Source: Elusimicrobiota bacterium
GTDB lineage: Bacteria; Elusimicrobiota; Elusimicrobia; UBA1565; JACRDR01
Reading direction: 5' to 3'
Length of the DNA: 39,711 nucleotides
Assembly: GCA_041694815.1 (NCBI GenBank)
Contig: JBGFSC010000041.1
Span: 1 to 39,711, forward strand
The position numbers and the translations under genes are program-made. The first letter of the stretch is position 1. Each line of letters opens with the position of its first letter. The notes below the pieces were generated by a model. The model saw nothing but the letters and a program-made list of their open reading frames with translations, had not been told where the DNA came from and did not search any database. This document shows, one piece after another, positions 2,791 to 19,315 of this stretch.

Positions 2791-3621
2791 TCAGGGCAAC
2801 GGCAAGATTAAATTCAAGTTCAGGCGGAAACGGTCCTCGGCCTTTTCCGTTCCACCCCCTTCGACAGCCTGGGCCCGGCGATTGAGCCGTTCGGAGAGCT
2901 CCTGGAGCTCACCGGCGTCGTAGGCGATTCTCCATATCCGAACTTGTCCGGTCGAGGTGCCGGCCGCCAGCAGTCGATTGTCGGGGCTCAGAGTCGCCCG
3001 AGTCAGGTGGCCGGATTCCTCATGCACCTTCTTGACCACATTCCTTGAGGAGACGTCCCAGACGATCGCCTCGCCGTATTGGCCTACGGTGACTACCATC
3101 GAATGGTCGTGCGAGAGTTGCGCGTCGTGGACGGAACCCGAATGTTCTCCATGGAGCAGGACATAGTCTTCCCTATCCAGATCCCAAACCCCGACGCCGT
3201 CGATATATTTCCGAAAATCCAGGGTGGCATTGGCTCGGGGCAGTTCCCCGAAGTAGGCGACGAGCGGATTGTCGAATTCGGCGGGATGGATCACCCCGCT
3301 TGGTAGATCTAGCAGTCCTTTGCCATGCGGGATCCGCACGGCGATCTTGGACGCGTCCGGCGTGAAGCGTGGATCCGACGCATGTTCTGCAAGGCTCAGG
3401 GTTCGCAGCGGAGCCCAGTTCGCGGTGTCCCACAACACTGCCGTCTGGGACTGGTCGTTTTCGGCGAACGCTAGCAGACGGGAGCCGTCGCCGCTGAAGA
3501 CGAGCGCCTTGACCCTTCCCGTACCGACGTTCAAGGTTTTCGGCTCCAGCTCCAACAACGGTTGCGCGAACGCGGGAACGGAAAGCTGAGGCAGGACCGT
3601 GATGATGAATAGGGCGATCAT
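2791..3621 (-). CDS. Secreted WD40-repeat protein with shared C-terminal tail
   Basis: Signal peptide ending AFA-Q; WD blades (FSGDGSRLL..LWD, EHSGSV..VWDV, LSPDNRLLAAG..IW); tail AEDRFRL. Confidence 0.75.
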   Translation of the reverse strand: MIALFIITVLPQLSVPAFAQPLLELEPKTLNVGTGRVKALVFSGDGSRLLAFAENDQSQTAVLWDTANWAPLRTLSLAEHASDPRFTPDASKIAVRIPHGKGLLDLPSGVIHPAEFDNPLVAYFGELPRANATLDFRKYIDGVGVWDLDREDYVLLHGEHSGSVHDAQLSHDHSMVVTVGQYGEAIVWDVSSRNVVKKVHEESGHLTRATLSPDNRLLAAGTSTGQVRIWRIAYDAGELQELSERLNRRAQAVEGGGTEKAEDRFRLNLNLILPLP

Positions 3622-4589
3622 TCCGGAGTCCTATCCCAGTCCAGGCGGAAGCGTTCCTCGGCCGTCGCTATGGCCCGATCGATCGCTTCCGGCATGGCGG
3701 CGCGATGCGATAGGACGCTTTGGAGCTCCTTTGCTCGGGCCCGACGCGTCGCTTGATTGCGCTCCCGAACCAAGCGGAACCCCACGTAGCGTTCATCCCC
3801 GTACGGGTTGGCCCCGTTTCGCGCCGCGGAGCGCAGCTCCCTGTCGCTGTGCCGCCATGAGCCGCCGCGTACGACCCGATGGGATCCGGATGAAGCCCCG
3901 GTCGGATCGATGACGGCTCCTTTGGGATAATCGCCGAAAATGTCTTGGGTCCACTCCATCACGTTGCCATGCATGTCGTAGAGGCCCCAGGGGTTGGGCT
4001 GCTTGGTGGCCACGGGACGCGTCGTGGGCATTAATCCTCGCGACCAGGTCGGCGGCATATACCAGGCCGTGCTCGCCGGATCTCCGGAATAAGGAGAGGT
4101 GGTTCCGGCGCGGGCGGCATACTCCCACTCGGCCTCCGTGGGCAGGCGGTAGACATATTCGTTTTGGAGCTCGTTTAAGCGCGCGATGAATGCCTGAGCC
4201 TGGTGCCAATTTACCTTCTCCACCGGGTTATTGGGGCAAAGTCCCCGCCCGGATACCAGGCGGTAATCCCGGCAATGGTATTGCTCCTGGAAAAACGATG
4301 GGTTATTTCCCATCACCAGAAGATACTGCAACTGGGTCACCTCGGTCGCCTGGATCTCGAAGCCGCGGGTCAGGGTCACCGGGTGTTGATCCTCGCCCTT
4401 GAAACGCCCAGGCTCGTTCTTGGGACTGCCCATCAGAAAATTTCCGGGCTCGATGGGAACGAACTTCGCGGCCACTCCGATGGTGGCGGCGTCCAATACG
4501 CTCGGAGCGCCGGGCTGGCTCAATACGCCGGCGGCGTTCATCGCGCCGACAGCGGACTGCGCTATGGTCAGCAACGCCAAGAGATTCAT
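3618..4589 (-). CDS. Secreted FGE-sulfatase (SUMF1/C-type-lectin-fold) domain protein with shared C-terminal tail
   Basis: FLMGS, TEVTQ, PVEKVNW, RLPTEAEWEYAARAG, PNPWGLYDMHGNVMEW, RVVRGGSW, GFRLVR; tail AEERFRLDWD. Confidence 0.9.
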   Translation of the reverse strand: MNLLALLTIAQSAVGAMNAAGVLSQPGAPSVLDAATIGVAAKFVPIEPGNFLMGSPKNEPGRFKGEDQHPVTLTRGFEIQATEVTQLQYLLVMGNNPSFFQEQYHCRDYRLVSGRGLCPNNPVEKVNWHQAQAFIARLNELQNEYVYRLPTEAEWEYAARAGTTSPYSGDPASTAWYMPPTWSRGLMPTTRPVATKQPNPWGLYDMHGNVMEWTQDIFGDYPKGAVIDPTGASSGSHRVVRGGSWRHSDRELRSAARNGANPYGDERYVGFRLVRERNQATRRARAKELQSVLSHRAAMPEAIDRAIATAEERFRLDWDRTPE

Positions 4590-4626
4590 CTCTAGGTAAG
4601 GATAACGGGATCGAAGCCGGTTACGA

Positions 4627-4664
4627 GGGTCCTACGACCTAACGCAAGATGGGACTTTAGGGAA
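4627..4664. promoter_or_regulatory. Tandem 14-bp operator boxes upstream of the FGE-sulfatase gene
   Basis: GGGTCCTACGACCT (4627-4640) and GGGACTTTAGGGAA (4651-4664); same 24-bp spacing at 6342, 20038, 37087. Confidence 0.6.
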
Positions 4665-4734
4665 GGAAAGGCTAGTGGTAGAGCGGATACAAAGTCAGGC
4701 TTTATGATCGTTTGGCTACAGCGGGATATGCCGC

Positions 4735-5523
4735 TTAACGGATTAACCTATCCCAACCAAGCCTAAAGCGTTTCTCGGCGCTTTCCGCCGAGCGGCTCGT
4801 TACTTCCTGCGCCTTCGATCGGAGGCGCTGATGGAGATCGTTCTGGGCGGCAGGATGCCAAAGATGGACCGTGCCGTCGAGCCCGTCCCCAAGCAGCACG
4901 AGGCCTGTCGGCGTGATATCGATCGATTCGATCGGGCGCCCGTGGCTTAACGTGGCGAGGCGTTCGCCGTTTAACTTCCAGAGGATCGCGTTTTGGGTGC
5001 TGACCGTCAGGACATGACCGCCGTCCGGAGTAAACGCCGCCATGAGCGGACGTCCCTCGTCTTCGAACATCGTTAAGACTTCGCTAGTCTCGTCCCCCTC
5101 GCCCAGATACATCCTAAATGGATGCTCACGGGACGAGAATAGCCGTTTCCCGTGCCGGTGATGGGGTTTCCAGTAAAGCTGGAAGTCTTCAATGATATGC
5201 CCGTCCGCATGGAGGCGCCGAGGTCGCTTAAGTCGAGAAGACGGTTCTTCGTCGTTCCGATAATCACGCCTGCCTTCCGTCCGATTGGAGACGGTGGTCC
5301 GGCGAAGGGCGGTCAGGGTCAGCGAATCCCAAACAACCGCCTCGCAGTCGAGTGAAGAGTCGCTACAGCGGATGGTCAAAAAGCGCGATGCATCGTCGCC
5401 GACCGAGACGTAAACCGGGCCGCGATCATGCGCCTGCAAGACGCGGTAGTATGGCTCCGAGTGAGCGGCACGGGCCCAGGCGCCGAAAACGGCCGTAAGC
5501 GCCAATAGTCGAGAGGCTACCAT
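4735..5523 (-). CDS. Secreted degenerate WD40-like protein with shared C-terminal tail
   Basis: Signal peptide; AFTPDGGHVLT, GLDGTVHLW; tail AEKRFRLGWD. Confidence 0.7.
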   Translation of the reverse strand: MVASRLLALTAVFGAWARAAHSEPYYRVLQAHDRGPVYVSVGDDASRFLTIRCSDSSLDCEAVVWDSLTLTALRRTTVSNRTEGRRDYRNDEEPSSRLKRPRRLHADGHIIEDFQLYWKPHHRHGKRLFSSREHPFRMYLGEGDETSEVLTMFEDEGRPLMAAFTPDGGHVLTVSTQNAILWKLNGERLATLSHGRPIESIDITPTGLVLLGDGLDGTVHLWHPAAQNDLHQRLRSKAQEVTSRSAESAEKRFRLGWDRLIR

Positions 5524-6284
5524 GCTGCCGATTCGAATCGAAATAAGTCCCAGCGGAGTTTAAAACGCTGATCCGCCGTCTCGTCGGTTCCCCCCTGAAG
5601 CGTAGAGGCTCTTAGAGTTAGGGATCGCCGTAATGCTTCAAGGTCCTCCGCCGTATAACCCATCTTCCAAAGGTGTATTGTCCCGTCGATGCAGCCCGTA
5701 ATCACGCGCGTTCCATCCGGGCTGAAGGCCGCAGAAGTGACAAAAGTCTCGTGACGTAAGACTTTTGAGGGAAGGCGGCTATTCACATCCCAGATAACCG
5801 CGGTATAATCCTGATTCGTGGTAATCGCTTGGCTGCCGTCGAGATTAAAGGCGATTCTGTCCGAGCCCGCATGCCCCTCAAAGACTAGCTCCGTAATAAT
5901 CCCATTTGGGTCCTTTAGCTTGTACCGGCTCCATCGTTCCGCTGAATTGCTTACGATTCCCGTGAGCTGCTTTGAGCCAACTTTTTGGGATTTCTTCCGA
6001 GCCGTTTCCAGCAATCTATATCCCTCGCCCCAAATCCCTTCTAAAACTTTTATTTTCCGTAGGCTCGCGGCGTCCCATATAACGACCTCGTCACTTCTCT
6101 TGTCTGTTTCCTTCTTACCATAAGTAACTATTTGCGATCCGTCTTCGAGATAGTACGCAGCGTATACCTCGGAATGGGCCTTCACGCTTCGAGGCCTGTC
6201 TTTCAGCAAGGCGTCGGTATCCGAGGCAGAAACCTGCGCGCACAAGGCCAATGCGGCCAAAGTCACCACAAATAGACTCTGCAT
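5517..6284 (-). CDS. Secreted WD40-repeat protein with shared C-terminal tail
   Basis: Start at M17 of the ORF (MQSLFVVTLAALALCAQVSA signal peptide); FEGHAG..FNLDGSQAIT..IWD, AFSPDGTRVITGCIDGTIHLW; tail ADQRFKLRWD. Confidence 0.78.
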   Translation of the reverse strand: MQSLFVVTLAALALCAQVSASDTDALLKDRPRSVKAHSEVYAAYYLEDGSQIVTYGKKETDKRSDEVVIWDAASLRKIKVLEGIWGEGYRLLETARKKSQKVGSKQLTGIVSNSAERWSRYKLKDPNGIITELVFEGHAGSDRIAFNLDGSQAITTNQDYTAVIWDVNSRLPSKVLRHETFVTSAAFSPDGTRVITGCIDGTIHLWKMGYTAEDLEALRRSLTLRASTLQGGTDETADQRFKLRWDLFRFESAAW

Positions 6285-6341
6285 GACGTCTGAATCGTTT
6301 GTTGCTTGCTTAAGAATGGGTTCGGTTCCCATTATTGGCGA

Positions 6342-6387: not shown

Positions 6388-7986
6388 TTACAGCGGGATA
6401 TTGCCGCGGTTGACGTGCTGGGAGGGGTCGCGCTTGTCGCGCAGAAAGCGCAAGGCGCGCACGACGCGCAGGCGCAACTGGCTGGGGTCGATCACCTCGT
6501 CCACCGAGCCGGTCGCGGCGGTCTGATAGGGAGAGGCGAACTTGTCGGCGTACTCCTTGCAGAGCTTCTCGCGCAGGGCGTCGCGCTGCTCCGGCGGCGC
6601 GGCCGCCAATTCGCGCGAATAAAGGATTTCCACGGCGCCCTTGGGGCCCATCACCGCGATCTCGGCCGAGGGGAAGGCGAAGTTGAAGTCGCCGCGAAGA
6701 TACTTCGAGCTCATGGCGATGTAGGCGCCGCCGTAGGCCTTGCGCAGCACCACCGTCACCTTGGGCACCGTCGCCTCGCTGTAGGCGTAGAGGAGCTTCG
6801 CTCCGTGGCGGATGATGCCGCCGTGCTCCTGCTGCACGCCGGGCCAGTAGCCCGGCACGTCGACCAAGGTCAGGATGGGGATATTGAAGGCGTTCAAGAA
6901 CCGGATAAAGCGCGCCGCCTTGTCGGAGGCGTCGATATCGAGGGCGCCGGCCATATGCGCCGGGTTGTTGGCCACCACGCCGACCACGTCTCCCCCCAGC
7001 CTCGAGAAGCCGATGATGATGTTCTTGGCGTAGTGGTCATGCACCTCGAAGAACTTGTGCTCGTCGGCGATCTGCCAGATCACGTGGTGCACGCGGTAGG
7101 GCTTTCTCGGGTCGATCTCGCAGAACTTCTCGAGCAGCGGGGTGCTGCGCCGCACGGGGTCGGGGCTGGCCACGCGAGGGGCCTTCTCTCCCGCGTGCTG
7201 CGGCAGGTACTGCAGCAGCTCGCGGACCTGGCGGAAGCAGTCCGGCTCGCTCTTGGCCACGAAATGGCAGACGCCGGATTTCGTCGCGTGCAGGTACGGC
7301 CCTCCCAAGAGATCGAAGGTGACGTCCTCCCCCGTGGCGGCCTTGACCACGTCGGGACCGGTCACGAACATGTGGCTGATGCCCTCGACCATGAAGACGA
7401 AGTCGGTCAAGGCCGGGGAATAGACGGCGCCCCCAGCGCAGGGGCCGAGCACGACGGAGATCTGCGGGATGACCCCCGAGCATCGCACGTTGCGCCAGAA
7501 TATCTCGGCGTAGCCGTCGAGGGAATCGACTCCCTCCTGGATGCGCGCGCCGCCGGAGTCGAGCAGGCCGATTACGGGGACCCGGTTCTCGTAGGCCAGG
7601 TCCATGATCTTGCATATCTTATGGGCGTGCGCCAGGCCGAGGGACCCTCCCAGCACCGTGAAATCCTGGGCGAAGATGCAGACGGGGCGCCCGGCGATCG
7701 TCCCGAAGCCGGTGATGACGCCGTCTCCGGGGACCTGTTTTTCCTTAAGGCCGAACTCCTCGCAGCGCGTGGTGACGAGCAGATCGGTCTCCTGGAAGCT
7801 GCCCTCGTCGAGCAGGTAATGGACTCGCTCGCGGGCGGTGAGCTTGCCCTTGTTCTTCTGCGCCTGGACGCGCTCCGGCCCGCCGCCGTCCATCGCGCGG
7901 CTCAATTGCTCCTCGAGCCGGCGCATGGAGGCCGAGTCCTCGCGCTTCTTGGCGGTGGAGGGTTCAGTAGGCTGTTTGGTTTCCAT
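6388..7986 (-). CDS. Acyl-CoA carboxylase carboxyltransferase (PccB/MmdA-like beta subunit)
   Basis: KGKLTARER, QDFTVLGGSLG, DSGGARIQEG, GPCAGGAVYSPALTD, GIIRHGAKLLYA, RKAYGGAYIAM, GNIPL C-terminus. Confidence 0.93.
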   Translation of the reverse strand: METKQPTEPSTAKKREDSASMRRLEEQLSRAMDGGGPERVQAQKNKGKLTARERVHYLLDEGSFQETDLLVTTRCEEFGLKEKQVPGDGVITGFGTIAGRPVCIFAQDFTVLGGSLGLAHAHKICKIMDLAYENRVPVIGLLDSGGARIQEGVDSLDGYAEIFWRNVRCSGVIPQISVVLGPCAGGAVYSPALTDFVFMVEGISHMFVTGPDVVKAATGEDVTFDLLGGPYLHATKSGVCHFVAKSEPDCFRQVRELLQYLPQHAGEKAPRVASPDPVRRSTPLLEKFCEIDPRKPYRVHHVIWQIADEHKFFEVHDHYAKNIIIGFSRLGGDVVGVVANNPAHMAGALDIDASDKAARFIRFLNAFNIPILTLVDVPGYWPGVQQEHGGIIRHGAKLLYAYSEATVPKVTVVLRKAYGGAYIAMSSKYLRGDFNFAFPSAEIAVMGPKGAVEILYSRELAAAPPEQRDALREKLCKEYADKFASPYQTAATGSVDEVIDPSQLRLRVVRALRFLRDKRDPSQHVNRGNIPL

Positions 7987-8686
7987 GGTTTCTGGCGGTG
8001 GCGACGGTCGAGCAGTACTCGTCGAAAAAGGAGGTCTTGTAGGAGACTCGCGGGCTTAAGAGCTCCTGCCAGCGCCGCAGGGCGGCTCCGCGCAGCTCAA
8101 GGCGGCCGCCCTCGACGCGGAGATCGCGTAGGTCCACGGAGAGGCCCAGCCCAAGCGCCTTGAGCACGGCCTCCTTGATCGTCCAGAGCGCGGTCAGCCG
8201 CGCGGGGCTCGCGAGCAGTGAGTCGTCGAGCTCGGAGGGGTCCGCCATTACCCAGGGCCAGGAGGGATCGCGCGGCTCGATCCTCTCGATGTCTAGGCCG
8301 ACGGCGCCTTCGCTCAGGACCGCGCAGCCGGCGTAATCGCGCGCATGGGATATAGAGAGCGCCGGCGCGCGCGTATTCCAAGACGAAGGGAAAGCCGCGT
8401 AGGGCCGCCGCTCGGGAGAATTACGGATCTCCATGTCGCCCGGGGAGGCCGCGATACCGCGTTCGGATAAATATTGGATCAGGGCCCGCTTGGCGGCCAG
8501 CCTTCCCGCCAGCCATTCCCGGCGGCGCTTGGGCGTGGCGAGCCGCCCGAGGGTCGAGGCCTCCAATCCGCTCAAATACTCGCGCAGGCTCGGCGGGTCG
8601 CCGAGCAGCGTCTCGGCTTCGGAGATGGGGCAATATTCTATTAGCGGCGACAGGAGCCGGACCGTCGTGAAATCCAGCGTGTTCAT
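7964..8686 (-). CDS. 4'-phosphopantetheinyl transferase (Sfp-like)
   Basis: RRREWLAGR.AAK, LSISH, VGLDIE, WTIKEAVLKALGLGL; ATG overlaps the PKS stop (ATGA). Confidence 0.9.
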   Translation of the reverse strand: MNTLDFTTVRLLSPLIEYCPISEAETLLGDPPSLREYLSGLEASTLGRLATPKRRREWLAGRLAAKRALIQYLSERGIAASPGDMEIRNSPERRPYAAFPSSWNTRAPALSISHARDYAGCAVLSEGAVGLDIERIEPRDPSWPWVMADPSELDDSLLASPARLTALWTIKEAVLKALGLGLSVDLRDLRVEGGRLELRGAALRRWQELLSPRVSYKTSFFDEYCSTVATARNHGNQTAY

Positions 8687-11600
8687 GAGACCGCGATCAT
8701 CCGATAATCCTGGAGTTCGACCCAAGCTCGGCCCTCCTCATCGAAGACGACGGCGTCGTAGACGCTCTTTTGGCCCTCCTCGGCTCCCTTGTACCAGACG
8801 CGGACGAAAAGGCGGCGCGGGGCTTCTTTATCATGCGGGAGCAGGCGGATGCGGCCGATGGAATCCGGCAGCGTCATTTTCTTGGAGAAGTGCAGGTCGC
8901 GGTAGCCGCAGGCTTGGAAGGCGGCCTCGGTCAGCAGGGGGTGGAAGGCGAGCTCCTTGGCCTTACCGTCCCAGAGCGGCTTGGCCGGCCGGAGGTAGAC
9001 GGCCAAGAGCTCCTTTTCGCTCAGCGATACGACGCCCTCGAGCACTTGGAAGCTGGGGCCGTGGAAGTAGGCGGAGTAGATCGCCTCCGGCTTGACCGCG
9101 AAGGGAGCCTTCTCGGCTCGGCCCGGGGCGGCCAGCGCAGGCGCCACAGAAAGGAGGCGGGCGGAAAAATGGGTGCGCGGGCCGCCGAGCTTAAGTCCCT
9201 GCGGCGTGATGAAATCGGACTCGATGGACAGTTCACCGGACTTCTTGGCGCGGCAGCGCACCGCGATGGGCCTGTTGCGCAGCAGCTTGATCGGCAGCGA
9301 GAAGCGCACGTCCTCGAAGCCTCCGGGCAGATGGCCCGAGAGCCTACCGAGGGCCTCGGCGAAAAGCTCGAGCCCCATCACCCCCGGGACGTAGGGGACG
9401 CCCGCGATCGAATGATCCGCCAGCCATGGATCCTTCTCGAGGCTGAACTCCTTTTCCAGGACGATCTCTTCGGCCCCTTCCTGGAGGGTCCTCTCGGCAA
9501 GCAGGGCCGCGCCCTTGGGAAAAGGAACGGATTCGGGTGCCTTCGGGAGCGCCGTCACGGCGCCGCCGCGGACCATCTGAGCGTCTAAGTCCATGCGGCC
9601 CAGCGAGCCGGCCAGCAGCACCTCGCTTTCGGGGCAGCCCGAGGCGGCCTCCTCCAGCAGCATCCGCACGGCGACGGGGGGCGGCATGAAATCGACGCCC
9701 TGCGACTTGAGGAACTGCTCCACGCCGCCCCGCGTGGCCATGCCGATCTCGGCGATGGCCGTCAGGTCCACCGCGGTGGCCGCCACGCCTTGCGAGCGCA
9801 TCCAGCAAGAGAGGCCGGCCAGGAATTCGCTGGCCGCGGCGTAATCGGTCTGTCCGACGTTTCCGAAGCGGCCCACGACCGAGGAGAAGAAAACCCAGCG
9901 CTGCCCGGCCTTGGGCTTTAAATGCCGATACAGGTAATAGGCCCCGTGCGCCTTCGCCCGGAACACGGCCGCGAAGCGCTCGGGGGTCTTGTCCGCCAAG
10001 AGCTTGGATTCCTCGAGCCCCGCGGCGTGGAATACGCAGTCCGCGGAGAACGGCTTTAAGGATCTTAAGGCCGCTGCCAGCGCGGCCTCGTCGGCGATAT
10101 CCGCCGCGAGGTAATGGACCTGGGCGCCGGCGGCGCGCATGGATTCCAAGTTTCGATACAGCTCGGCGGCCTTCGCCACGCGCGAAAATTCGCGCTCGAG
10201 AAGCACCGGAGTCGCCTTGCGGGATTTATCCGCCTTGAGCTTTTCCCACATCCGCTGCTTTAAGGAGCTGAGGCCGGCCGCGTCGAGTTTCGCCCATTCG
10301 GCGGCCTCCTTCGAGAGCGGCGTGCGCCCGATGATCACCAATTTGGGCTTATAGGTCCGGGCCAGCTCCTTGGCGAGCTCGGCGCCCAGGCCCTGGCCGC
10401 CGCCCGTCACGACGACCCAGGATTTGGGGCCCAGGAAGGCGACGACGGCCGGGGGCTTGGCCGCCTTCAGGCGGAGGCCCCGACGCTTGCCTTTCTCGAA
10501 GAAGACCTCGCCGATCGGGTCGTCGCCCTGCAGCTCGGCGCACGCGGAGGAGGCCGCCTCCGCCGTTGAGAACTTGCCGCGAAAGACGAGCGCCTGCACC
10601 CGGGCCTTGGGCAATTCCTTCCGCAAGGCCTTGGCCAGCCCCGACAAAGCCGCAGACAAGGGGTGTTCGGCGCCTACGGTCAGTATCCAGCCGGAATCCT
10701 CCAGCGCCGGGCCCAGGCGTTTGGCGGCCGACAATAGCGGAAGCAGCGAGCCGGAGAACTCATTCTCAAAAGTCTTGGGGGTCGATTTATTGAAATCGCC
10801 GAACTCGAGCCCGGCCAGGCAGAGAATCCCCTGCGGCTTGGAGGCGGCCGCCTTTTCGATGGAGCTGCTGGAGGCCGAAGGCTTGAGCACGAGCGAAGGG
10901 ACCCCGGCCGCCTTCAAGGCGGCGGCGAAGGGCTTGGCCGCCGCGGCGCTCGCCGATAGTATCAGCGCGGGGCGGGTTTTTGAAAGGGGAGTTGCGGTGG
11001 TGCCAGCCTTTAGGCTGGCACCCCTTCCACGCGGCGGCAAGGGACGGTCATAAAGCTCCGGCACCCAGCGCTCGAAATGAGCGGCGGCCGCGACGGGCTT
11101 GGCCGCCTCGCGGAGGGGCGCCTCGGGGGCCGTGCCGTTGGCCGTCTGGCTCAGCACGAAGCCGATCACATGCCGCAGCGTGGGATAATCCTTGAGGGCC
11201 AGGTTCTCCTGCTTGGGGATGCCGTATTTCTCGCGGATGATGCCGATGAGCTCGGCCTGCTTGACCGTGTCGATGCCGAGGTCGGCCTCCATGTCCAAAT
11301 CCAGCTCGAGCATTTCCGCGGGGTAGCCGGTCTTCTCGCTGACCAAGGCGGTGACGGCGGCGCGGATCTCCGGCTCGCGCCCGTCCGCGGGCGCGGGTAA
11401 CGATGGTGCCAGGGATTGACTTTCGCCTAGGCGAAAGTCAATCCCTGGCACCGTAACAATACCGGAAGGCTCCGTCGGAATCTTCTCGGCGGGCGGTTCC
11501 GGGGCGGCAGGGGTCGACGAGCCTCCCGTGTTGCTCAAAACGAAGCGCACGACATGGCGCAAGGTGGGATAATCCTTGAGGGCCAGGTTCTCCTGCTTGG

Positions 11601-14600
11601 GGATGCCGTATTTCTCGCGGACGATGCCGATGAGCTCGGCCTGCTTGACCGTGTCGATGCCGAGATCGGCCTCCATGTCCAAATCCGGCTCGAGCATTTC
11701 CGCGGGGTATCCGGTCTTCTCGCTGACCAAGGCGGTGATCGCCCGCAGCACTTCGCCTTCTCCTAGGCTTGCGCCCACCGCGACGGGGACCCGGACGGGT
11801 TTCGGCGCCTGCGTGGCGGATGGTGCCAGGGATTGACTTTCGCCTAGGCGAAAGTCAATCCCTGGCACCTCGGAACGGCCGGCCACGGGCGCCGGGGCGG
11901 CGGCGCCCGTGGGCTCCTTGACTCGCAGGGTGTTCTGCGCCACCTCGAGCTCGGGGTTCTCCTGTCCCGAGACCTTGCGCAGCCAGCGGAGGTGGCGCGC
12001 CGGGTCGTAGACGCGCTTTTCGCCTTTCTTGAGCGCGCGGCGCATCAAGGTCATGGCGATCTGCGAGCCGAAGCCGGCGCCGAGCCGCAGCGCGTATTCG
12101 AGATCGTGCTCGCCCCCGTGGCTGAGCGTGACGCCCGCCAGCTCGGGGTCCGGCTCGCGGTAGTTGGCGATCGGCGGGAGGAGGCCGGTGACCAGCGCGC
12201 GGATGGCCACGGGATCCTCGATGGAGGCGCCCATCGAATGCCCCGTGAATCCCTTGGTATTGGCCACGATGATGCGGCGCGCGTCATCGCCGAAGGTTTT
12301 TTTAAGCGCCTGCACCTCGGCGGAGGCCGAGCCTCCCCTCGCCGGCGTGTAGGTCTCGTGAGACATGAACAGGGCCTTGGCGGCCACTTCCCGGCGGCTG
12401 AGGGCGTGCCGGCGCTCCGCCTGGAGCATCAACGAATCCATGACCTCGCTGACGTGCGCGGTCTCCAGGCGCGTGGCGTGGTAGGCGGAATTCTTGAATT
12501 CGCTCGCGAGTATCTCGGCCAGCGGCTTCATGCCGCGCTGGGCGGTTTGGGCGCCGTCCTCGATCACGAGGCCCGCCGCCCCCATGCCGAGTATCATGCC
12601 GTGGCGGCGCCGGTCGAAGGGCAGCGCCGCCTCGCTGACGACGCCGGTCGTCGTCGCCGCGCCGGCGGCCAGAAACCCCGAGATCATCCACTCGCGCAGG
12701 GCGGGGCTGGTGACGTCGTCGCCGGCGATGACCACCACCCGCTTGGCGCGGCCAAGCCGTATCCAATCCTCGGCCATGCATACCGCCTGGGTCGTCGAGG
12801 CGCAGGCCGCGCTGATCTGCGAGGAAGGCCCGCGCGCCCCGATCCATTGCGCCAGCTGGCTGTGGCCCAAGGGCATCACCCTCAGGAGGAAGTCGCGGCT
12901 GAACTCGTAGGGTCCCTCGCCGCCGTAGCGCTCTTGGTACTGCTTGAAGTGGGCGGTCATCCAATGCTCGACGGCCGCGCGCTCCTCCGGGCTCTTGAGC
13001 TGCGAGAGCAGCGACTGCAGCATCGCCGAGAGCTCGCGCAGCGGCTTGCGCCGGAACTTGTCGGCGAGATGCCGCGAGACCTCGGAGGCCATGCTGTCGA
13101 GAGAGGGATAGGCCGTGGCGAAGATGACGCCGGTCTCGTCCTTGAGCGCCGCGGGCAATTGCCAGCCCGTGGGAATCTTGGAGCCGGTGGTCGCCGTCTT
13201 GTAGGTGCGCACGAGCGGGATACCGGCGTCCTTTAAGGCCAATATCCCGGCCGCCACGGCGAGCCGGGAGGAAACGTCCATGGCGTGCGCGAGCGATTCC
13301 TTGAAGCCGAACTCCTTGGCCAGGTCGAATTCTCCGGCCAGGGCGGCGAGCTTGACCACCTCGGCGGCCGACTCGATGCGCTCGAGGCGATGATTGCCCG
13401 AGTCGGCCTTGATGAGGCGCACGATGTTTTTGTCGATCTGGCGCTGGAGGTCGGCATCGGAGAGCTTGCCGATCAGGTTTTGCCCGCGGATGATGTTGTC
13501 GAGGTTGTCCTCCCTGAAGACGCGGTCCCAGGCTCCGGGGGTCCCCGCGGCGATGCCGCTGACGACGATCGGGCCGAGATGGAGGCCCCAGCGTTCGATC
13601 AGGCTCGCGTCTGCCGCGCCGCCCGTACCTTCGCGCGGGCGCGGAGCCGAGACCGAGGGCTTCGGGTGGATCCAGGCGTGATACCCCGGCGTGTAAAAGC
13701 CCGGCCGGTAGGGATCCTTATCGTCGAGCTTGAGTTCCACCCCCTCGGCGGCGAGCCTCGCCAAGAGATCGTTGAACTCGAGCACGCCGCCCTTCTTCGG
13801 GTGGTTGGAGGAAAGCGCGGCGGCCTCCGCCTGGCCCTCGAGTATGCTCGTCGCGAAGGCGGTGAGCACGCGCTTGGGACCGACCTCGACGAACAGGCGC
13901 ACGCCGTCTTGGCGCATGCGCTCGACCTGGCGGATGAACTCCACGGGGGCCGCGATCTGCTCGACTAGGAGCTTGCGTATCTCCTGCGGGTCGTCGGGAT
14001 AGTAGGCCGCCGTGACGTTGGAGAGGATCGGTATCGCGGGAGCCTTGAGCGGCAGCCTCGAGAGCACGTTGGAATAGGGGGCTTGCGCCGGGGCGACGAT
14101 CTTGGAATGGAAGGCGTGCGAGACGCGGATTTCGACCGCTTGGACGCCCTGCTCCAGGAATTTCTTGACCGCCGACTCCACCGCACGGGTCTCGCCGGCG
14201 ATAACGGTCTGGATCGGGCAGTTCTTGTTGGCGGCGACGACGTAGCCCTGCACCTGCCGCAGCACCGGCTCGACCTTCTCCAGCGGGGCGGCGATGGAGG
14301 CCATCTTGCCGGAATCCTCGACCTTGACTCCGGCCATCTCCTTGGCACGCGAGGAGACGGCCAGGAGCGCGTCCTTGAAGGGCAATATCCCGGCGGCGAC
14401 GAGGGCCCCGTACTCGCCGAGGCTGTGGCCGCAGACCACGTCGGGCCTTACCCCGTAGCTCTCTAATAAGCGCAGCATCGCGATGTCGGCGGTAAGTACC
14501 GCCGGCTGCGTGATCTCCGTCTGCTTGATGCGCTCCTCCATGCGGAGCAGCTCTTGGGGGCTCTCTCCCCCCTTCGTGAACAGGACTTCGGTGAGCTTAT

Positions 14601-16530
14601 GGCCGACGATCTCGGACATCACCTCGTCGGCCTCGGCGAAGGTATCGGAGACCACCCGGTACTTGCGGGCCAAGTCCTTGAACATGTCGACGTATTGCGA
14701 GCCCTGTCCCGGGAAAAGGAATCCGATCTTGCCGGGCTTGCGCGCGCGGCCCGCGTGCAGCCCCTTGGCCTTGTATAGCGGCGGGGCCTTCTCCCAGATC
14801 GAGGAGTCCCGGGAGCGCAGGACGAACTCGATCTTTTCCTTGAGTTTGGCCCCGTTTTCCGCCGCGAGCCCGAGCGTGTATTCCTGGCGCTTGCCGGCGT
14901 TAAATTCCCACGCGGCGAGGGTCAGCGGCCCTTCGGAAGGGACCTTGTCGCTTAAGGCCTTGAGGCGGTCGAAAATCGCGTCCGGCGTGCCGCCGTGCGC
15001 GAGGAAGGCCTCGCCCCCGAGCGCCGGGTCCATATCGGGAGCCGCTGGCCCCGGATCGAGGGATTCCGTCAATCCTCCCGTTTTCTCCAAAAGGGAGAGA
15101 TCGCCGAGCCGGATCATAGTTTCGGCGTCGACCTCCTCTAAGGCGAGATGGAAATTCGTGCCGCCGAAGCCGAAGGAGCTTACGTGGGCTCGGCGCGGGT
15201 GCGCGGAGCGCTCCCATTCGCGCAGCTCCGTCACTACGAAGAACGGGGAACGCTCCCAGTCGATGCCCGGATTGGGGGTCTTGAAATGGATGCTGGGCGG
15301 CAGCTTCTTGTCGCGCAGGGCCAGGGCGGCCTTGATCACGCTCGCGGCTCCCGCCGCGGCTTTGAGATGCCCGATCTGCGACTTGACCGAGCCGAGGCCG
15401 ATGGAGCCCTTGGGCGCCGCCTTGAATATCTCGATGGCGGCGTTGGCCTCGATGACGTCGCCGACCTTCGTCGAGGTGCCGTGCGCCTCCAGCAGGCCCA
15501 CCGCCTCCGGCGCGTAATTGAGCTGGCGGAAGGCGCGCTCGATGGCCAGGCGCTGCCCCTTTGGATTAGGCGCGGTGATGCCCTTGCCGCGGCCGTCCGA
15601 GGAGGACCCGACGGCCCGGATCAAGGCGTAGATGCGGTCTCCGTCCTTGAGCGCGTCGCGCAGGCGCTTGAGCACCATTACGCCGGCGCCCTCGCCCATC
15701 ACGAAGCCGTTGGCGCCGGCGTCGAAAGGCCGGGACCCGTCGGGGGAGAGGGCCCCGATCTTGCAGAACTTGACGAAGGCCGGAGCCGACATCATCTGGT
15801 CGATCCCGCCGCTTAAGGCCATGTCGTACTCGTGGAAGCGCAGCCCGGAGACGGCCTGGCTCAGCGCGGCCAAGGACGAGGCGCAGGCGGCGTCGACGGT
15901 GATGTTGGCGCCGTTGAAATTGAACGCGTTGGCGACCCGGCCGGCGATGACGTTGGAAAGCTCGCCGGGCATCGTATCTTCCGTGATCGTGCTCAGTTGG
16001 GACTTGGCCGAGCGCTCCATCTCGTCGGCGATGGCCCGCCTGGCGGTCTCGGGAAGGGCGGCGAAGGAGGGGCTCGATTCGAGCTGTTGGCGGTAATAGG
16101 AAGCGTAAACGCGCAGGTCGGTCTGCTCTTTCTTCGGCCCGCCCATCGAATTGCCTAGGATGACGGCCGTGCGCTCGGGATCGTAAGGCTTCTTGTCGTA
16201 GCCCGAGTCGCGCAGGGCCTCGGCGGTCGCCGAGACGGCCAACTGCTGCACCCCGTCCATCTGCTGGGCCACCGGCGGCGGGATGCGCAGCTTGAGCGGA
16301 TCGAATTTAAATCCCTGGATGAATCCGCCGATCTTGGAATAGGTTTTGTCCGGCGCGGCGGGATCAGGATCGTAATAGAGCCGCCAGTCCCAGCGCTCGG
16401 GCGGGACTTGGGAGATGCAGTCCTTGCCGTTCTGGATATTCGTCCAGAACTCCGGGATGTCCTGGGCGCCGGGGAATATGCCGCCGATCCCGACGATGGC
16501 GATGGATTCCGACGGGTCGATGCGCGTCAT
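8683..16530 (-). CDS. Type I PKS/FAS-like megasynthase, KS-AT-KS-ACP-ACP-KR-DH
   Basis: KS1 DAACASS/HGTST/GHLKAAAG; AT GQGSQ/GHSLG/HAFHS; KS2 SAACAST/HETYT/GHSMGA; 2x DLGIDTVKQ; KR VTGGGQGLG and FSS..G..GQTDYAAA; DH HSIAGVPYVP. Confidence 0.92.
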   Translation of the reverse strand: MTRIDPSESIAIVGIGGIFPGAQDIPEFWTNIQNGKDCISQVPPERWDWRLYYDPDPAAPDKTYSKIGGFIQGFKFDPLKLRIPPPVAQQMDGVQQLAVSATAEALRDSGYDKKPYDPERTAVILGNSMGGPKKEQTDLRVYASYYRQQLESSPSFAALPETARRAIADEMERSAKSQLSTITEDTMPGELSNVIAGRVANAFNFNGANITVDAACASSLAALSQAVSGLRFHEYDMALSGGIDQMMSAPAFVKFCKIGALSPDGSRPFDAGANGFVMGEGAGVMVLKRLRDALKDGDRIYALIRAVGSSSDGRGKGITAPNPKGQRLAIERAFRQLNYAPEAVGLLEAHGTSTKVGDVIEANAAIEIFKAAPKGSIGLGSVKSQIGHLKAAAGAASVIKAALALRDKKLPPSIHFKTPNPGIDWERSPFFVVTELREWERSAHPRRAHVSSFGFGGTNFHLALEEVDAETMIRLGDLSLLEKTGGLTESLDPGPAAPDMDPALGGEAFLAHGGTPDAIFDRLKALSDKVPSEGPLTLAAWEFNAGKRQEYTLGLAAENGAKLKEKIEFVLRSRDSSIWEKAPPLYKAKGLHAGRARKPGKIGFLFPGQGSQYVDMFKDLARKYRVVSDTFAEADEVMSEIVGHKLTEVLFTKGGESPQELLRMEERIKQTEITQPAVLTADIAMLRLLESYGVRPDVVCGHSLGEYGALVAAGILPFKDALLAVSSRAKEMAGVKVEDSGKMASIAAPLEKVEPVLRQVQGYVVAANKNCPIQTVIAGETRAVESAVKKFLEQGVQAVEIRVSHAFHSKIVAPAQAPYSNVLSRLPLKAPAIPILSNVTAAYYPDDPQEIRKLLVEQIAAPVEFIRQVERMRQDGVRLFVEVGPKRVLTAFATSILEGQAEAAALSSNHPKKGGVLEFNDLLARLAAEGVELKLDDKDPYRPGFYTPGYHAWIHPKPSVSAPRPREGTGGAADASLIERWGLHLGPIVVSGIAAGTPGAWDRVFREDNLDNIIRGQNLIGKLSDADLQRQIDKNIVRLIKADSGNHRLERIESAAEVVKLAALAGEFDLAKEFGFKESLAHAMDVSSRLAVAAGILALKDAGIPLVRTYKTATTGSKIPTGWQLPAALKDETGVIFATAYPSLDSMASEVSRHLADKFRRKPLRELSAMLQSLLSQLKSPEERAAVEHWMTAHFKQYQERYGGEGPYEFSRDFLLRVMPLGHSQLAQWIGARGPSSQISAACASTTQAVCMAEDWIRLGRAKRVVVIAGDDVTSPALREWMISGFLAAGAATTTGVVSEAALPFDRRRHGMILGMGAAGLVIEDGAQTAQRGMKPLAEILASEFKNSAYHATRLETAHVSEVMDSLMLQAERRHALSRREVAAKALFMSHETYTPARGGSASAEVQALKKTFGDDARRIIVANTKGFTGHSMGASIEDPVAIRALVTGLLPPIANYREPDPELAGVTLSHGGEHDLEYALRLGAGFGSQIAMTLMRRALKKGEKRVYDPARHLRWLRKVSGQENPELEVAQNTLRVKEPTGAAAPAPVAGRSEVPGIDFRLGESQSLAPSATQAPKPVRVPVAVGASLGEGEVLRAITALVSEKTGYPAEMLEPDLDMEADLGIDTVKQAELIGIVREKYGIPKQENLALKDYPTLRHVVRFVLSNTGGSSTPAAPEPPAEKIPTEPSGIVTVPGIDFRLGESQSLAPSLPAPADGREPEIRAAVTALVSEKTGYPAEMLELDLDMEADLGIDTVKQAELIGIIREKYGIPKQENLALKDYPTLRHVIGFVLSQTANGTAPEAPLREAAKPVAAAAHFERWVPELYDRPLPPRGRGASLKAGTTATPLSKTRPALILSASAAAAKPFAAALKAAGVPSLVLKPSASSSSIEKAAASKPQGILCLAGLEFGDFNKSTPKTFENEFSGSLLPLLSAAKRLGPALEDSGWILTVGAEHPLSAALSGLAKALRKELPKARVQALVFRGKFSTAEAASSACAELQGDDPIGEVFFEKGKRRGLRLKAAKPPAVVAFLGPKSWVVVTGGGQGLGAELAKELARTYKPKLVIIGRTPLSKEAAEWAKLDAAGLSSLKQRMWEKLKADKSRKATPVLLEREFSRVAKAAELYRNLESMRAAGAQVHYLAADIADEAALAAALRSLKPFSADCVFHAAGLEESKLLADKTPERFAAVFRAKAHGAYYLYRHLKPKAGQRWVFFSSVVGRFGNVGQTDYAAASEFLAGLSCWMRSQGVAATAVDLTAIAEIGMATRGGVEQFLKSQGVDFMPPPVAVRMLLEEAASGCPESEVLLAGSLGRMDLDAQMVRGGAVTALPKAPESVPFPKGAALLAERTLQEGAEEIVLEKEFSLEKDPWLADHSIAGVPYVPGVMGLELFAEALGRLSGHLPGGFEDVRFSLPIKLLRNRPIAVRCRAKKSGELSIESDFITPQGLKLGGPRTHFSARLLSVAPALAAPGRAEKAPFAVKPEAIYSAYFHGPSFQVLEGVVSLSEKELLAVYLRPAKPLWDGKAKELAFHPLLTEAAFQACGYRDLHFSKKMTLPDSIGRIRLLPHDKEAPRRLFVRVWYKGAEEGQKSVYDAVVFDEEGRAWVELQDYRMIAVS
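10999..11022. repeat. 24-bp palindrome within the PKS linker
   Basis: GGTGCCAGCCT-tt-AGGCTGGCACC. Confidence 0.75.
11405..11452. repeat. 48-bp perfect palindrome within the PKS linker (copy 1)
   Basis: GGTGCCAGGGATTGACTTTCGCCT|AGGCGAAAGTCAATCCCTGGCACC, equal to its own reverse complement. Confidence 0.92.
11822..11869. repeat. 48-bp perfect palindrome within the PKS linker (copy 2)
   Basis: Identical to 11405-11452. Confidence 0.92.
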
Positions 16531-16535
16531 CAGGG

Positions 16536-17306
16536 TTAGCCGAGTTGCGGGACGCCGACGATGGAATAGCCCGCGTCCACGAAGATCACCTGGCCGGTGA
16601 TCATCTTGGCCTCCTCCGAGGCGAGAAAGGCCGCCGATTGGGCGACGTCCTTCGTGGTTACGTTGTCGCGCAGCGGGGCGACCGATTTGTGGTAATCGAG
16701 GATGTAGTCGAAGTCCTTGATGCCGCTGGCCGCCAAGGTCTTGATCGGCCCCGCCGAAACCGCGTTGACCCGGATCTTCCTGGGGCCTAGCTCGAAGGCC
16801 AATTCGCGCACGTAGGCTTCCAGCGCGGCCTTGGCCACCCCCATGACCTTGTAATTGGAGCAGACCCGCTGCCCTCCCAGATAAGTCAAGGTGATCACCG
16901 ACCCGCCCCTGGGCATCTTGGGAGCCGAGTGCTGGAGTATCTTGGAGAGCGAGTAGCTCGAAACCGTCAGGGCCTGGCCGAAATCCTCCGCCGTCACCTC
17001 CAGGAGCGGGCGCTCGAAGGTGGACGCCGGGGCGAAGGCGATGGAGTGGATCACGATGTCGATCGGGTCCTTGATTTTTGCGAAAAAAGCTTGCATTTCC
17101 TCTTCTTTCGCGACATCGCAGCGATCGAAGGAAAGTAGATTAGGCAGCTTGGGCGCCAGATCCTTGATGCGGCTGTGGTAACGGAACTGATAGGCGAGGA
17201 TGATCTTGGCGCCCTGGGAGGCCAGTTCTTGTGCGATTGCCCAGGCGATCGAGGTTTCGCTGGCTACGCCGAAAACAAGAGCGGTTTTGCCTTTTAAATC
17301 AGGCAT
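16536..17306 (-). CDS. fabI: Enoyl-ACP reductase
   Basis: GVASETSIAWAIA, HSIAFAP, TLTYLG, NYKVMGVAKAALE, RVNAVSAGPIKTLAASGI, ITGQVIFVDAG. Confidence 0.95.
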   Translation of the reverse strand: MPDLKGKTALVFGVASETSIAWAIAQELASQGAKIILAYQFRYHSRIKDLAPKLPNLLSFDRCDVAKEEEMQAFFAKIKDPIDIVIHSIAFAPASTFERPLLEVTAEDFGQALTVSSYSLSKILQHSAPKMPRGGSVITLTYLGGQRVCSNYKVMGVAKAALEAYVRELAFELGPRKIRVNAVSAGPIKTLAASGIKDFDYILDYHKSVAPLRDNVTTKDVAQSAAFLASEEAKMITGQVIFVDAGYSIVGVPQLG

Positions 17307-17312
17307 TTATGC

Positions 17313-17341
17313 ATTTTATCTATTTTCCGATGGAGCGTCAA
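17313..17341 (-). promoter_or_regulatory. Sigma70-type promoter of the fabI-PKS operon (leaderless)
   Basis: TTGACG-17 nt-TAAAAT, then 6 nt to the ATG. Confidence 0.75.
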
Positions 17342-17396: not shown

Positions 17397-17405
17397 GGGC
17401 CGTTG

Positions 17406-18374
17406 ATGGAAGACTGGTGGCTTTACGGGGCCTCGGCCGGTTTTTTGGCCACGGCCGCCCTTTGGCCGTACTTCCTTTTCAAATACCGCCGCTCCTCAGC
17501 CCCGGTCGAGGACGCCGAGTTCTCCTCGGAGCCAATCGAGCCGGTGTCCATGCCGTTCCCTGAGTCGGCCCCCGTCCCCGAGCCCATTCCCCAGCAGGCC
17601 GTGGAAGTCAAGTCGGCGGCCAATCCGGCTCCCGTTCCCGCGGCCGTCGCCGCCGGTGCCGGGTCCCAACTTAAGGCGGCGCTCGCCGCCGTGCCGGGCT
17701 CCGATACGACGGCGCCGCTTAAGACCTTGAAAACCGGGGAGACCAGCACCGGAGGCGTGAGCCCCGCGGTCATCTATCTGCAGAATCTCAAGAACAACCT
17801 GGAGCATCTCGAAAAAGAGGTCTCGAGCCTGAAGCTTCAAGTCTCCAATTTCTCGCAGAAGCATGACGCTCAATTCAATTCGCTGCTACAGCGCTTGGGC
17901 GAGGTAAAGGAGGAGCTGCATAACCTGCCTCACGAGGCGGCGGCCGCTCCCGCCACCGCGGCGGCTTCGACGATCCCTCTACCGGCGGCATCACCCCAAG
18001 CGGCGCCGGCGGTAAGTCCCGTGGTGGAAACCCCGAAGTCCAAGGCTGAAGAGACGATACGCATCGTGCCCACCCTGAATTCTCCCGACCCCGCTCCCGC
18101 TCCAGCGGCGACGAAGCCGTCCGTGTGGCCGACTCCCGCTCCCGCGCCGGCTCCGGCCGCGGCTCCGGCCGCGACTCCTGCTCCGGCTGCCGCTCCTACC
18201 GCGGCTCCCGCGCCGACTCCGATTCCGACGGCCGCGCCCACGCCGGCTCCTACGCCCGCGCCAACGCCCGGCCCCGCGCCGGCGAACCCGCTGAAAATAG
18301 AACCTTCTTCCGTGCCTCCGCCTTCTGAGTCCGATTCGAAACCGCAACGCCGGGGCCCGGTGTGGCCGGTCTAG
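17406..18374 (+). CDS. Membrane-anchored coiled-coil and Pro/Ala-rich protein
   Basis: N-terminal hydrophobic helix, heptad region LQNLKNNLEHLEKEV..., long PAPA/PTPA tract; follows a consensus promoter. Confidence 0.75.
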   Translation: MEDWWLYGASAGFLATAALWPYFLFKYRRSSAPVEDAEFSSEPIEPVSMPFPESAPVPEPIPQQAVEVKSAANPAPVPAAVAAGAGSQLKAALAAVPGSDTTAPLKTLKTGETSTGGVSPAVIYLQNLKNNLEHLEKEVSSLKLQVSNFSQKHDAQFNSLLQRLGEVKEELHNLPHEAAAAPATAAASTIPLPAASPQAAPAVSPVVETPKSKAEETIRIVPTLNSPDPAPAPAATKPSVWPTPAPAPAPAAAPAATPAPAAAPTAAPAPTPIPTAAPTPAPTPAPTPGPAPANPLKIEPSSVPPPSESDSKPQRRGPVWPV

Positions 18375-19315
18375 CTTCTCTACTTTTCCTCGCCGCCTCC
18401 TCGGCATCCGCGGGCCTTTTCCCTTCTTCCCCATTCTCGGACAGCGCCGTCGGCACCACGGCCGTGCCGTTGCTCAAATCCCCCCCGAGTGCGCGCGCCG
18501 ACGCGTTGGGCGGCTCCTTGGCCGCGGTGGCCGACCGTTCGGAATCCATCTTTTGGAATCCGGCCGGCATCGCCAAGCTCTACCACTTGGGCGACTCCGA
18601 CCTGAGCCTAGGATATAACGCGCTGATCGAAACGGCCTATACCGGGACCGTATGCTACGCCCGCCCGTTCGCCGGAATCGGGGTGTTCGGCTTCGGCCTG
18701 CTGTACGCGGCGCAGTCAAGCATCCAAGGATACAATGCAGTCGGGGATACAAACGGTTCCTTCACTCCCAACGACCTCGTGATGGACTTAAGCTACGGCA
18801 GGAGGCTGGGAGCTGTACTGGCGGGCTTGGGGCTCAAGTTCATCCGTTCGCAGGTGGCCGACGTCTCGGGAACCTCCTTCGCTCTTGATCTGGGCGTGCA
18901 GATGCAGAGCGTCTGGAAACCGTCTGAGGGGCCGATCGACATCGGGCTCAGCCTGCAGAACCTAGGGCCTCCCCTCAAGATGGGCGGGGGTTCGGACCCG
19001 CTGCCGACCAAGATCCAGGGCGGCTTCGCGTGGCATTTCAACGAGCGCTTCAGCGGCCTTCTCGACGGGCACCTGCCCGTCGACCAGGAGCCCTACGTCA
19101 GCCTCGGGGCGGAGGGCCGGCTTCCGGTGGCAAGCACGATCAAGGCGGGCTTGCGCGGCGGCTACAATATGTCCTATTCGCGGGGAGTGCCCGGATTCGC
19201 GGGGGTCACCGCCGGCTTCGGGCTGGAAGTGGAGCGCTTCCGCGTCGATTATGCCTGGGTGCCGTTCGGGGATCTGGGGAGCAGCAACCGGTTTTCTTTA
19301 GGGTATCGCTTTTAG
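18362..19315 (+). CDS. PorV/PorQ (UPF0164)-like outer-membrane beta-barrel
   Basis: Signal peptide; SARADALGG..A.AD....IFWNPAGIA; RVDYAWVPFGDLGSSNRFSLGYRF terminal Phe. Confidence 0.8.
   Translation: MAGLASLLFLAASSASAGLFPSSPFSDSAVGTTAVPLLKSPPSARADALGGSLAAVADRSESIFWNPAGIAKLYHLGDSDLSLGYNALIETAYTGTVCYARPFAGIGVFGFGLLYAAQSSIQGYNAVGDTNGSFTPNDLVMDLSYGRRLGAVLAGLGLKFIRSQVADVSGTSFALDLGVQMQSVWKPSEGPIDIGLSLQNLGPPLKMGGGSDPLPTKIQGGFAWHFNERFSGLLDGHLPVDQEPYVSLGAEGRLPVASTIKAGLRGGYNMSYSRGVPGFAGVTAGFGLEVERFRVDYAWVPFGDLGSSNRFSLGYRF

Follow-up and report, generated by a model that had tools for sequence, protein, structure and literature searches.

A Type R two-ketosynthase megasynthase as a candidate primary fatty acid synthase in Elusimicrobiota

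The stretch of DNA analysed here (the window) comprises 39,711 nucleotides, positions 1 to 39,711 of contig JBGFSC010000041.1 in assembly GCA_041694815.1 of an Elusimicrobiota bacterium, and contains a putative lipid synthase operon. The operon consists of four open reading frames (ORFs) on the minus strand (bp 17306-6388), in the order fabI, megasynthase, phosphopantetheinyl transferase (PPTase) and carboxyltransferase. The first gene, fabI (bp 16536..17306, 256 aa), codes, by profile searches and PDB matches, for a probable enoyl-ACP reductase of the short-chain dehydrogenase/reductase (SDR) type. It is followed after 5 nt by the gene for a Type R PfaA-like megasynthase (bp 8683..16530, 2615 aa; domain searches and alignment), the stop codon of which (8683-8685) is overlapped by the in-frame ATG at 8686 of an Sfp-type PPTase gene (bp 7964..8686; family searches). 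This ATG is the likely start of the PPTase, the longest ORF being 253 aa (7964-8725) from a TTG at 8725. The reading frame of the PPTase shares 23 nt with that of a 12S/PccB-type carboxyltransferase (bp 6388..7986, 532 aa; family searches). All 17 loci for which downstream DNA was available kept the order synthase, PPTase, carboxyltransferase; one more locus, the 18th, is cut. The initial annotation of this DNA described the four genes as tightly coupled under one consensus promoter. The coupling is borne out by the 5-nt gap and the two overlaps. The promoter, a sigma-70-like match just 5' of fabI (TTGACG-17 nt-TAAAAT, bp 17313..17341, minus strand, 10/12 consensus matches), is a consensus match only and not significant alone, since 2 promoter-like sites were seen in the region and 1.5 were expected from shuffles. 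Public sequencing runs covering the operon, RNA runs among them, were looked for and none was listed.

The megasynthase has the predicted order KS-AT-KS-ACP-ACP-KR-DH, in which KS is ketosynthase, AT acyltransferase, ACP acyl carrier protein, KR ketoreductase and DH dehydratase; all coordinates that follow are on the minus strand. KS1 (residues 1-470, bp 15121..16530) has the triad Cys216/His350/His388 and a Pfam KS match at residues 8-470. The AT (residues about 595-930, bp 13741..14748; domain match 604-926, fabD model 1e-63) has GHSLG, Arg728 and HAFH, the latter within SHAFHS in the translation. KS2 (residues about 986-1510, bp 12001..13575) matches FabF structures and contains Cys1243, His1391, Lys1426 and His1431. 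Two ACP domains follow, at residues about 1590-1670 (bp 11521..11763) and about 1719-1796 (bp 11143..11376), 87% identical to each other and both with the motif DLGIDTV. The KR occupies residues about 2030-2290 (bp 9661..10443; domain match 2038-2260) and the DH, of the type found in polyketide synthases (PKS), residues about 2335-2615 (bp 8686..9528; domain match 2343-2614), with His2373 and with Glu2535 in HPLLTE, read in the translation as FHPLLTEAAFQ. A family search of the operon proteins found no enoyl reductase or thioesterase domain. The best family match of the megasynthase was TIGR02813 (PfaA; E 5.6e-252, 839.4 bits), below the cut-off of 1010.1. Both triads (C216/H350/H388 and C1243/H1391/H1431) were invariant in 22 of 22 aligned homologues, as were GHSLG and AFHS of the AT, His2373 and Glu2535 of the DH, and the KR residues. 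The gene content, the domain order, the two complete Cys-His-His triads, the HAFH and HPLLTE motifs and the lack of reductase and thioesterase domains were thus all as initially annotated.

The view that this architecture is unprecedented did not hold. With a single pfaA homologue carrying a KS, an AT, a second KS-fold domain, two ACPs and a KR (plus the DH), and with a PPTase gene directly downstream, the locus is, as judged from its predicted domains, a Type R secondary lipid synthase, a class that is already catalogued and uncharacterised. The class was defined (Shulse & Allen 2011, PLoS One 6:e20146, PMC3098273) by a single pfaA homologue of the order KS-MAT-CLF-ACP(3-6)-KR with a PPTase gene after it; CLF denotes a chain length factor, and by position this 'CLF' is KS2 here. 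A homologue search with the KS2 region gave 4047 matches among 8000 candidates. Among the 120 matches listed the closest were Elusimicrobiota proteins, with 49-76% identity over the KS2 region, and all source names given were Elusimicrobia or Elusimicrobiota. In the wider KS2-type family the representatives P0130, P0184 and P0196 (with its cluster) are labelled as Asgard archaea (Heimdallarchaeota, Heimdallarchaeum); their identity to the KS2 region is about 41-46%.

Whether KS2 condenses was judged from its active site. The domain aligned with FabF structures at E 2e-27, with its Cys, His, Lys and His on the FabF catalytic residues, so that it has the Cys-His-His plus Lys of an elongating beta-ketoacyl synthase. 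Its 60 best solved relatives were elongating synthases of the FabF/FabB/KasA type and KS domains of PKS. Pfam scored KS2 far below KS1, and the N-terminal half is divergent with an insertion, good alignment to FabF starting only from about residue 1205. These last features, together with the position after KS-AT and the label 'CLF' given in 2011 (PMC3098273), would suit a KS2 that acts as a chain-length-factor-like partner of KS1, priming or setting chain length and not condensing. Against this stand Cys1243, His1391, Lys1426 and His1431, which match the catalytic positions of FabF in the alignment and do not vary across the 22 homologues. Characterised CLFs are not known to keep the active-site Cys, and we regard a non-condensing KS2 as unlikely. 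It would in any case concern a sub-step and is compatible with either a primary or a secondary function of the synthase. The initial annotation also raised a head-to-head (OleA-like) condensation by the two KS domains, yielding a dimeric lipid or olefin. Nothing speaks for it except that both KS domains are intact. KS2 is FabF-like and not OleA/FabH-like, the full reductive set and the malonyl-type AT point to ordinary decarboxylative elongation, and a search for Ole-type partner genes, confined to the operon, found none; such a reaction is very improbable.

Both carrier domains read DMEADLGIDTVKQAEL, with a threonine where carrier proteins have the serine that bears phosphopantetheine. In alignment, Thr1627 of the first domain falls on the Ser of DLGADSL in solved type II ACPs and on that of DLGIDSV in the PigH carriers, while the fold and the other motif residues show no such change. 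Eleven residues around the threonine were invariant in 22 of 22 aligned homologues. Among the 120 listed Elusimicrobiota homologues, 116 proteins contained the motif, with Thr in 329 copies, Ser in 0 and another residue in 0. A further 145 representatives of the wider KS2-type family gave 121 proteins with the motif (Thr 327, Ser 11, other 3), and in these 341 motifs Ser was confined to five proteins. Two of the five, P0184 and P0196, are labelled Heimdallarchaeota (the others are P0262, P0216 and P0223). The genome's own AcpP (contig C49:8759-8983) has the usual serine, in DLGADSLD, and AcpS is present in the genome, so the operon PPTase is not needed for AcpP. Ser-to-Thr mutants of ACP are not known to be modified by AcpS. 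Given the alternation of Ser and Thr at a strictly conserved site, and a dedicated PPTase beside the synthase while AcpS serves AcpP, a threonine-linked phosphopantetheine appears to be the simplest reading of the site. In narrow literature searches, which cannot show that such a linkage is unpublished, we found no description of a threonine attachment site; a paper that they turned up dealt with the essential serine only. Neither 'serine' nor 'threonine' occurs in PMC3098273.

The identification of the operon FabI rests on several matches. It matched Pfam adh_short_C2 at 4e-77 and FabI models at 3e-76; its best 13 NCBIfam matches were enoyl-ACP reductases of the FabI/FabL type, all below the equivalog cut-offs (256 bits vs 337), and all 54 PDB matches at E<=1e-30 were enoyl-ACP reductases. 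The sequence NYKVMGVAK aligns with the catalytic Tyr-x6-Lys stretch. By tblastn it is the sole FabI-like gene in the genome. With this reductase acting in trans, the predicted activities of the operon do add up to the full reductive cycle that was initially proposed.

The carboxyltransferase matched Carboxyl_trans at 6e-182 and the mmdA subfamily at 1e-217, the latter below cut-off. By tblastn the genome has three 12S-type carboxyltransferases, the operon copy included. The two paralogues lie at C28:24336-25898 and C44:138569-140041; the one with 64% identity lies about 4 kb from methylmalonyl-CoA mutase, and the one with 31% identity sits with an enoyl-CoA hydratase and a 3-hydroxy-3-methylglutaryl-CoA (HMG-CoA)-lyase-like gene, a methylcrotonyl-CoA carboxylase context. 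One biotin carboxylase (AccC) over cut-off was present in the genome; no AccA was found there, nor was a gene for BCCP identified. Because AccA is missing, the paralogues stand in other contexts and the operon position is conserved, we infer that the operon copy is an acetyl-CoA carboxyltransferase that feeds the synthase.

The genome that contains the window (a 2.77-Mb assembly, 97.8% complete with 0.48% contamination) was searched for the remaining genes of fatty acid synthesis. No stand-alone FabF/B was found in it, the fabF model matching only KS1, KS2 and a thiolase; a weak KS match on contig C35 was considered as a stand-alone KS and rejected, being this thiolase. There was no match to the fabH model and no stand-alone FabD, the fabD model matching the AT domain only, and tblastn of the genome found no paralogues of KS1, KS2 or the AT. 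Genes for AcpP, FabG and FabZ are retained, each over its family cut-off. On contig C49, plsX, fabG and acpP follow one another, with nothing between plsX and fabG, and lpxC-fabZ-lpxA-lpxI is intact on contig C40. The genome thus keeps the consumers of acyl-AcpP and three type II enzymes, and the missing activities are exactly those that KS-AT-KS could supply. The initial annotation had linked a primary role to the absence of fabF, fabH, fabD and acpP from the host; the first three are absent, which favours such a role, and acpP is present. Its description of the operon as self-contained must be given up, as AcpP, FabG, FabZ, PlsX, AcpS and the biotin carboxylase, all encoded elsewhere in the genome, are probably needed. 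An acyl-CoA dehydrogenase (AcrC-like) gene followed by etfB and etfA lies directly after acpP (C49:9682-12753), at the usual place of fabF.

The same question was put to 251 genomes sampled from the phylum Elusimicrobiota. The two-KS synthase was present in 96 of them (KS2-type match E<=1.1e-129), and the next best KS2-type match was 6.9e-30, to ORFs of about 415 aa. FabF over cut-off was found in none of the 96 carriers vs 126 of the 155 other genomes, and FabH over cut-off in none of the 96 vs 122 of 155; the lists of carriers and of FabF and FabH genomes were compared by eye, on all rows over cut-off. The carriers belong to families f1, f2, f4, f5, f8 and f11, all in one class. No KS2-type match was seen in families f3, f6, f7, f9, f10 and f12, which fall in that class too, or in any other class, and all synthase-free groups except part of f3 have type II genes. 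In the five carriers examined, among which are two single-contig genomes, the synthase was the only match of the fabD model; as fabD is absent even in single-contig carriers, assembly gaps are not the explanation. In 25 further carriers, acpP was present in 25 and a FabZ-like gene in 25 (13 over cut-off), and fabG over cut-off adjoined acpP in 23; plsX-fabG-acpP was contiguous in 7 of 8 carriers inspected. Carriers include genomes of free-living size (2.7-4.3 Mb). They are kin and not independent, so the pattern may reflect one or few ancestral events.

The sister family f3 (genera g5, g6, g7 and g9; loci G212:C32:118539-127625, G223:C24, G146:C75 and G240:C23) has neither the two-KS synthase nor FabF or FabH over cut-off. 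What it does have is a stand-alone KS that is divergent (265-332 bits), joined in genera g5, g7 and g9 by giant Pfa-like ORFs of 2018-2457 aa that occur in pairs.

Taken together, these data suggest that the operon is probably the bacterium's only means of building fatty acid chains, in the form of a hybrid primary fatty acid synthase in which an iterative Type R PfaA-like megasynthase would replace FabH, FabD and FabF. The carboxyltransferase and the single biotin carboxylase of the genome would make malonyl-CoA, and the AT would load malonyl and probably also acetyl units. KS1 and KS2 may both condense, with the work split by chain length or between initiation and elongation. The KR and DH would act in cis and FabI would reduce the enoyl intermediate in trans. 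The operon PPTase is predicted to arm the two ACP domains at the unusual threonine. Since PlsX and LpxA depend on acyl-AcpP, and since FabG, FabZ and AcpP have been kept, free AcpP must receive chains or intermediates; this could come about by direct action of the KS and AT domains on AcpP or by transfer from the cis ACPs. That FabG and FabZ have been kept speaks for some KS product being bound to AcpP.

Several observations weigh against a primary synthase of this kind. FabH-like genes that miss the cut-off (195-244 bits vs 292) occur in ten carriers, and 28 of the 79 genomes of family f4 have a KS below cut-off (1e-73 to 1e-92). The cis KR and DH are redundant with FabG and FabZ, both still present in the genome; the model offers no explanation for this redundancy, and no thioesterase or transferase that would move chains to AcpP was identified. 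The enoyl reductase, annotated initially as acting in trans, is present here and is a local feature: a FabI like that of the window was found in only 4 of 25 other carriers and adjoined the synthase in only 2 of 18 loci. In five f4 and f5 carriers the FabI model matched only FabG. FabK over cut-off was found in none of 26 genomes, and the FabV model gave no match, but the control was also silent, so that this blank says little. Most carriers, those of families f4 and f5 among them (e.g. G064, G241, G006, G052 and G110), are thus without a recognisable enoyl reductase, which a synthase of saturated fatty acids needs; the window's own genome is unaffected. Either an unrecognised reductase exists in these carriers or the product is not fully reduced. 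Finally, in PMC3098273, Type R hosts in Acidobacteria and Chloroflexi are not flagged as being without type II fatty acid synthesis, so the family need not be a primary synthase everywhere.

The one sub-cut-off KS of family f4 that was examined (G241:C1:1046000-1062000) sits in an aryl-polyene-like cluster comprising an SDR, an FAD oxidoreductase, the KS, an ACP, an acyltransferase, LolA, MMPL and a thioesterase, which accounts for the extra KS of this carrier. The acyl-CoA dehydrogenase with EtfBA after acpP was considered as a general reductase and rejected, its adjacency being limited to the window's own genome, G126 and G214 (dehydrogenase only) among 9 genomes; five other carriers do not show it.

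The synthase could instead make a specialised lipid, for example one with a very long or hydroxylated chain, while bulk fatty acids are obtained by uptake. The missing reductase of most carriers would fit such a product, as would the family assignment, PfaA being the best match, and the tandem ACPs with a dedicated PPTase, which are typical of synthases resembling those for polyunsaturated fatty acids (PUFA). Shulse & Allen likewise filed Type R, found in three phyla, among systems with unknown 'secondary' products (PMC3098273). Under this alternative, FabG and FabZ would be retained without a substrate unless some KS acts on AcpP, and the 3-hydroxyacyl-ACP that LpxA needs would have no evident source. 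A genome search for uptake proteins of the DegV/FakB type, which did not extend to scavenging by way of an acyl-ACP synthetase, found none, and in all 96 carriers, those of 2.7-4.3 Mb included, the synthase goes together with loss of FabF and FabH. On balance we consider a secondary role unlikely and a primary fatty acid synthase the better account of the operon.

The genes that surround the operon were also inspected. Downstream (bp 2791-6332, minus strand) lie three WD40/beta-propeller ORFs (271, 262 and 276 aa) and an ORF of the FGE-sulfatase family (3618-4589). They were considered as operon members and rejected, not being conserved beside the cluster in the loci examined. On the other side, the gene that is divergent from the promoter region of the operon is a 323-aa ORF with no match to any family (bp 17403-19315, plus strand, is the span inspected); it is followed by a gene for an outer-membrane protein of the PorV/PorQ family at 18362-19315 (plus strand). 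The divergent 323-aa ORF adjoins the synthase in four relatives (L029, L030, L037 and L044).

Extended further, the proposal is that a class-level clade of Elusimicrobiota discarded FabH, FabD and FabF and runs its essential synthesis of fatty acids and of the acyl chains of lipid A on a two-KS megasynthase of Type R, together with the type II components that remain, and that its tandem ACPs carry phosphopantetheine on threonine through the co-encoded PPTase. We put this wider statement forward tentatively, with less than even confidence. If true, it would give a bacterial lineage in which essential fatty acid synthesis rests on a PUFA-synthase-like enzyme, and it bears on the question which inhibitors of fatty acid synthesis these bacteria of gut and groundwater could be sensitive to. 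The threonine linkage would be of a kind for which the searches made found no description among carrier proteins, and the synthase would thereby be shielded from AcpS. A threonine site beside a dedicated PPTase, in a genome with a serine-bearing AcpP and AcpS, poses the question whether the PPTase can modify threonine, and why. The Asgard-labelled members of the family touch the question of bacterial-type lipid synthesis in archaea. Type R has been a catalogued orphan since 2011, and the co-loss of three replaceable type II enzymes gives it a concrete and testable function. The value of the locus lies in this genome context, through which Type R gains an essential function that can be tested in one clade, and in the threonine carrier site.

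The nearest known system is Type R itself. Its founding hosts are Koribacter, Solibacter, Elusimicrobium minutum and Roseiflexus, in three phyla; its product is uncharacterised, and its clusters are classed among the 'secondary' lipid synthases (PMC3098273). The Koribacter cluster contains an acetyl-CoA-carboxylase-type gene, and the Elusimicrobium genome paper (Herlemann et al. 2009) is cited there for the odd GC content of the synthase. The treatment of Type R in PMC3098273 makes no mention of missing FabH, FabD or FabF in the hosts. Of later literature on Type R or on fatty acid synthesis in Elusimicrobia, our searches found, besides Shulse & Allen, only a remark on a KS tree in PMC3250452. 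The present locus shares with Type R, as described there, the order KS-MAT-second KS-like domain-tandem ACP-KR, the adjacent PPTase gene and a founding member in the Elusimicrobia. It differs from that description in having fabI as first gene, a carboxyltransferase after the PPTase, a detected C-terminal PKS-type DH, and 2 ACPs vs 3-6; its 'CLF' domain, moreover, keeps the full Cys-His-His triad.

With PfaA the megasynthase has in common the order KS-AT-tandem ACP-KR-DH and a dedicated Sfp-type PPTase. Unlike PfaA (TIGR02813), it has an extra KS between the AT and the ACPs and Thr instead of Ser at the ACP site, and it scores below the family cut-off. The partners PfaB, PfaC (KS-CLF-DH2) and PfaD (a FabK-like enoyl reductase), already noted initially as lacking from the operon, were not found in the genome either, which has no other KS and no FabK/PfaD-type match at E<=1e-30. 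The resemblance to the discrete enzymes FabH, FabD and FabF lies in the matches of KS1 and KS2 to FabF models and of the AT to FabD, in the malonyl-type motifs and in what is probably the same chemistry; unlike these enzymes, the activities are fused in one polypeptide with its own carrier domains. The heterodimers of KS and CLF in type II PKS and in PfaC likewise have two KS-fold domains that may pair; in contrast to them, both domains here keep the catalytic Cys, and an AT domain lies between them in a single chain.

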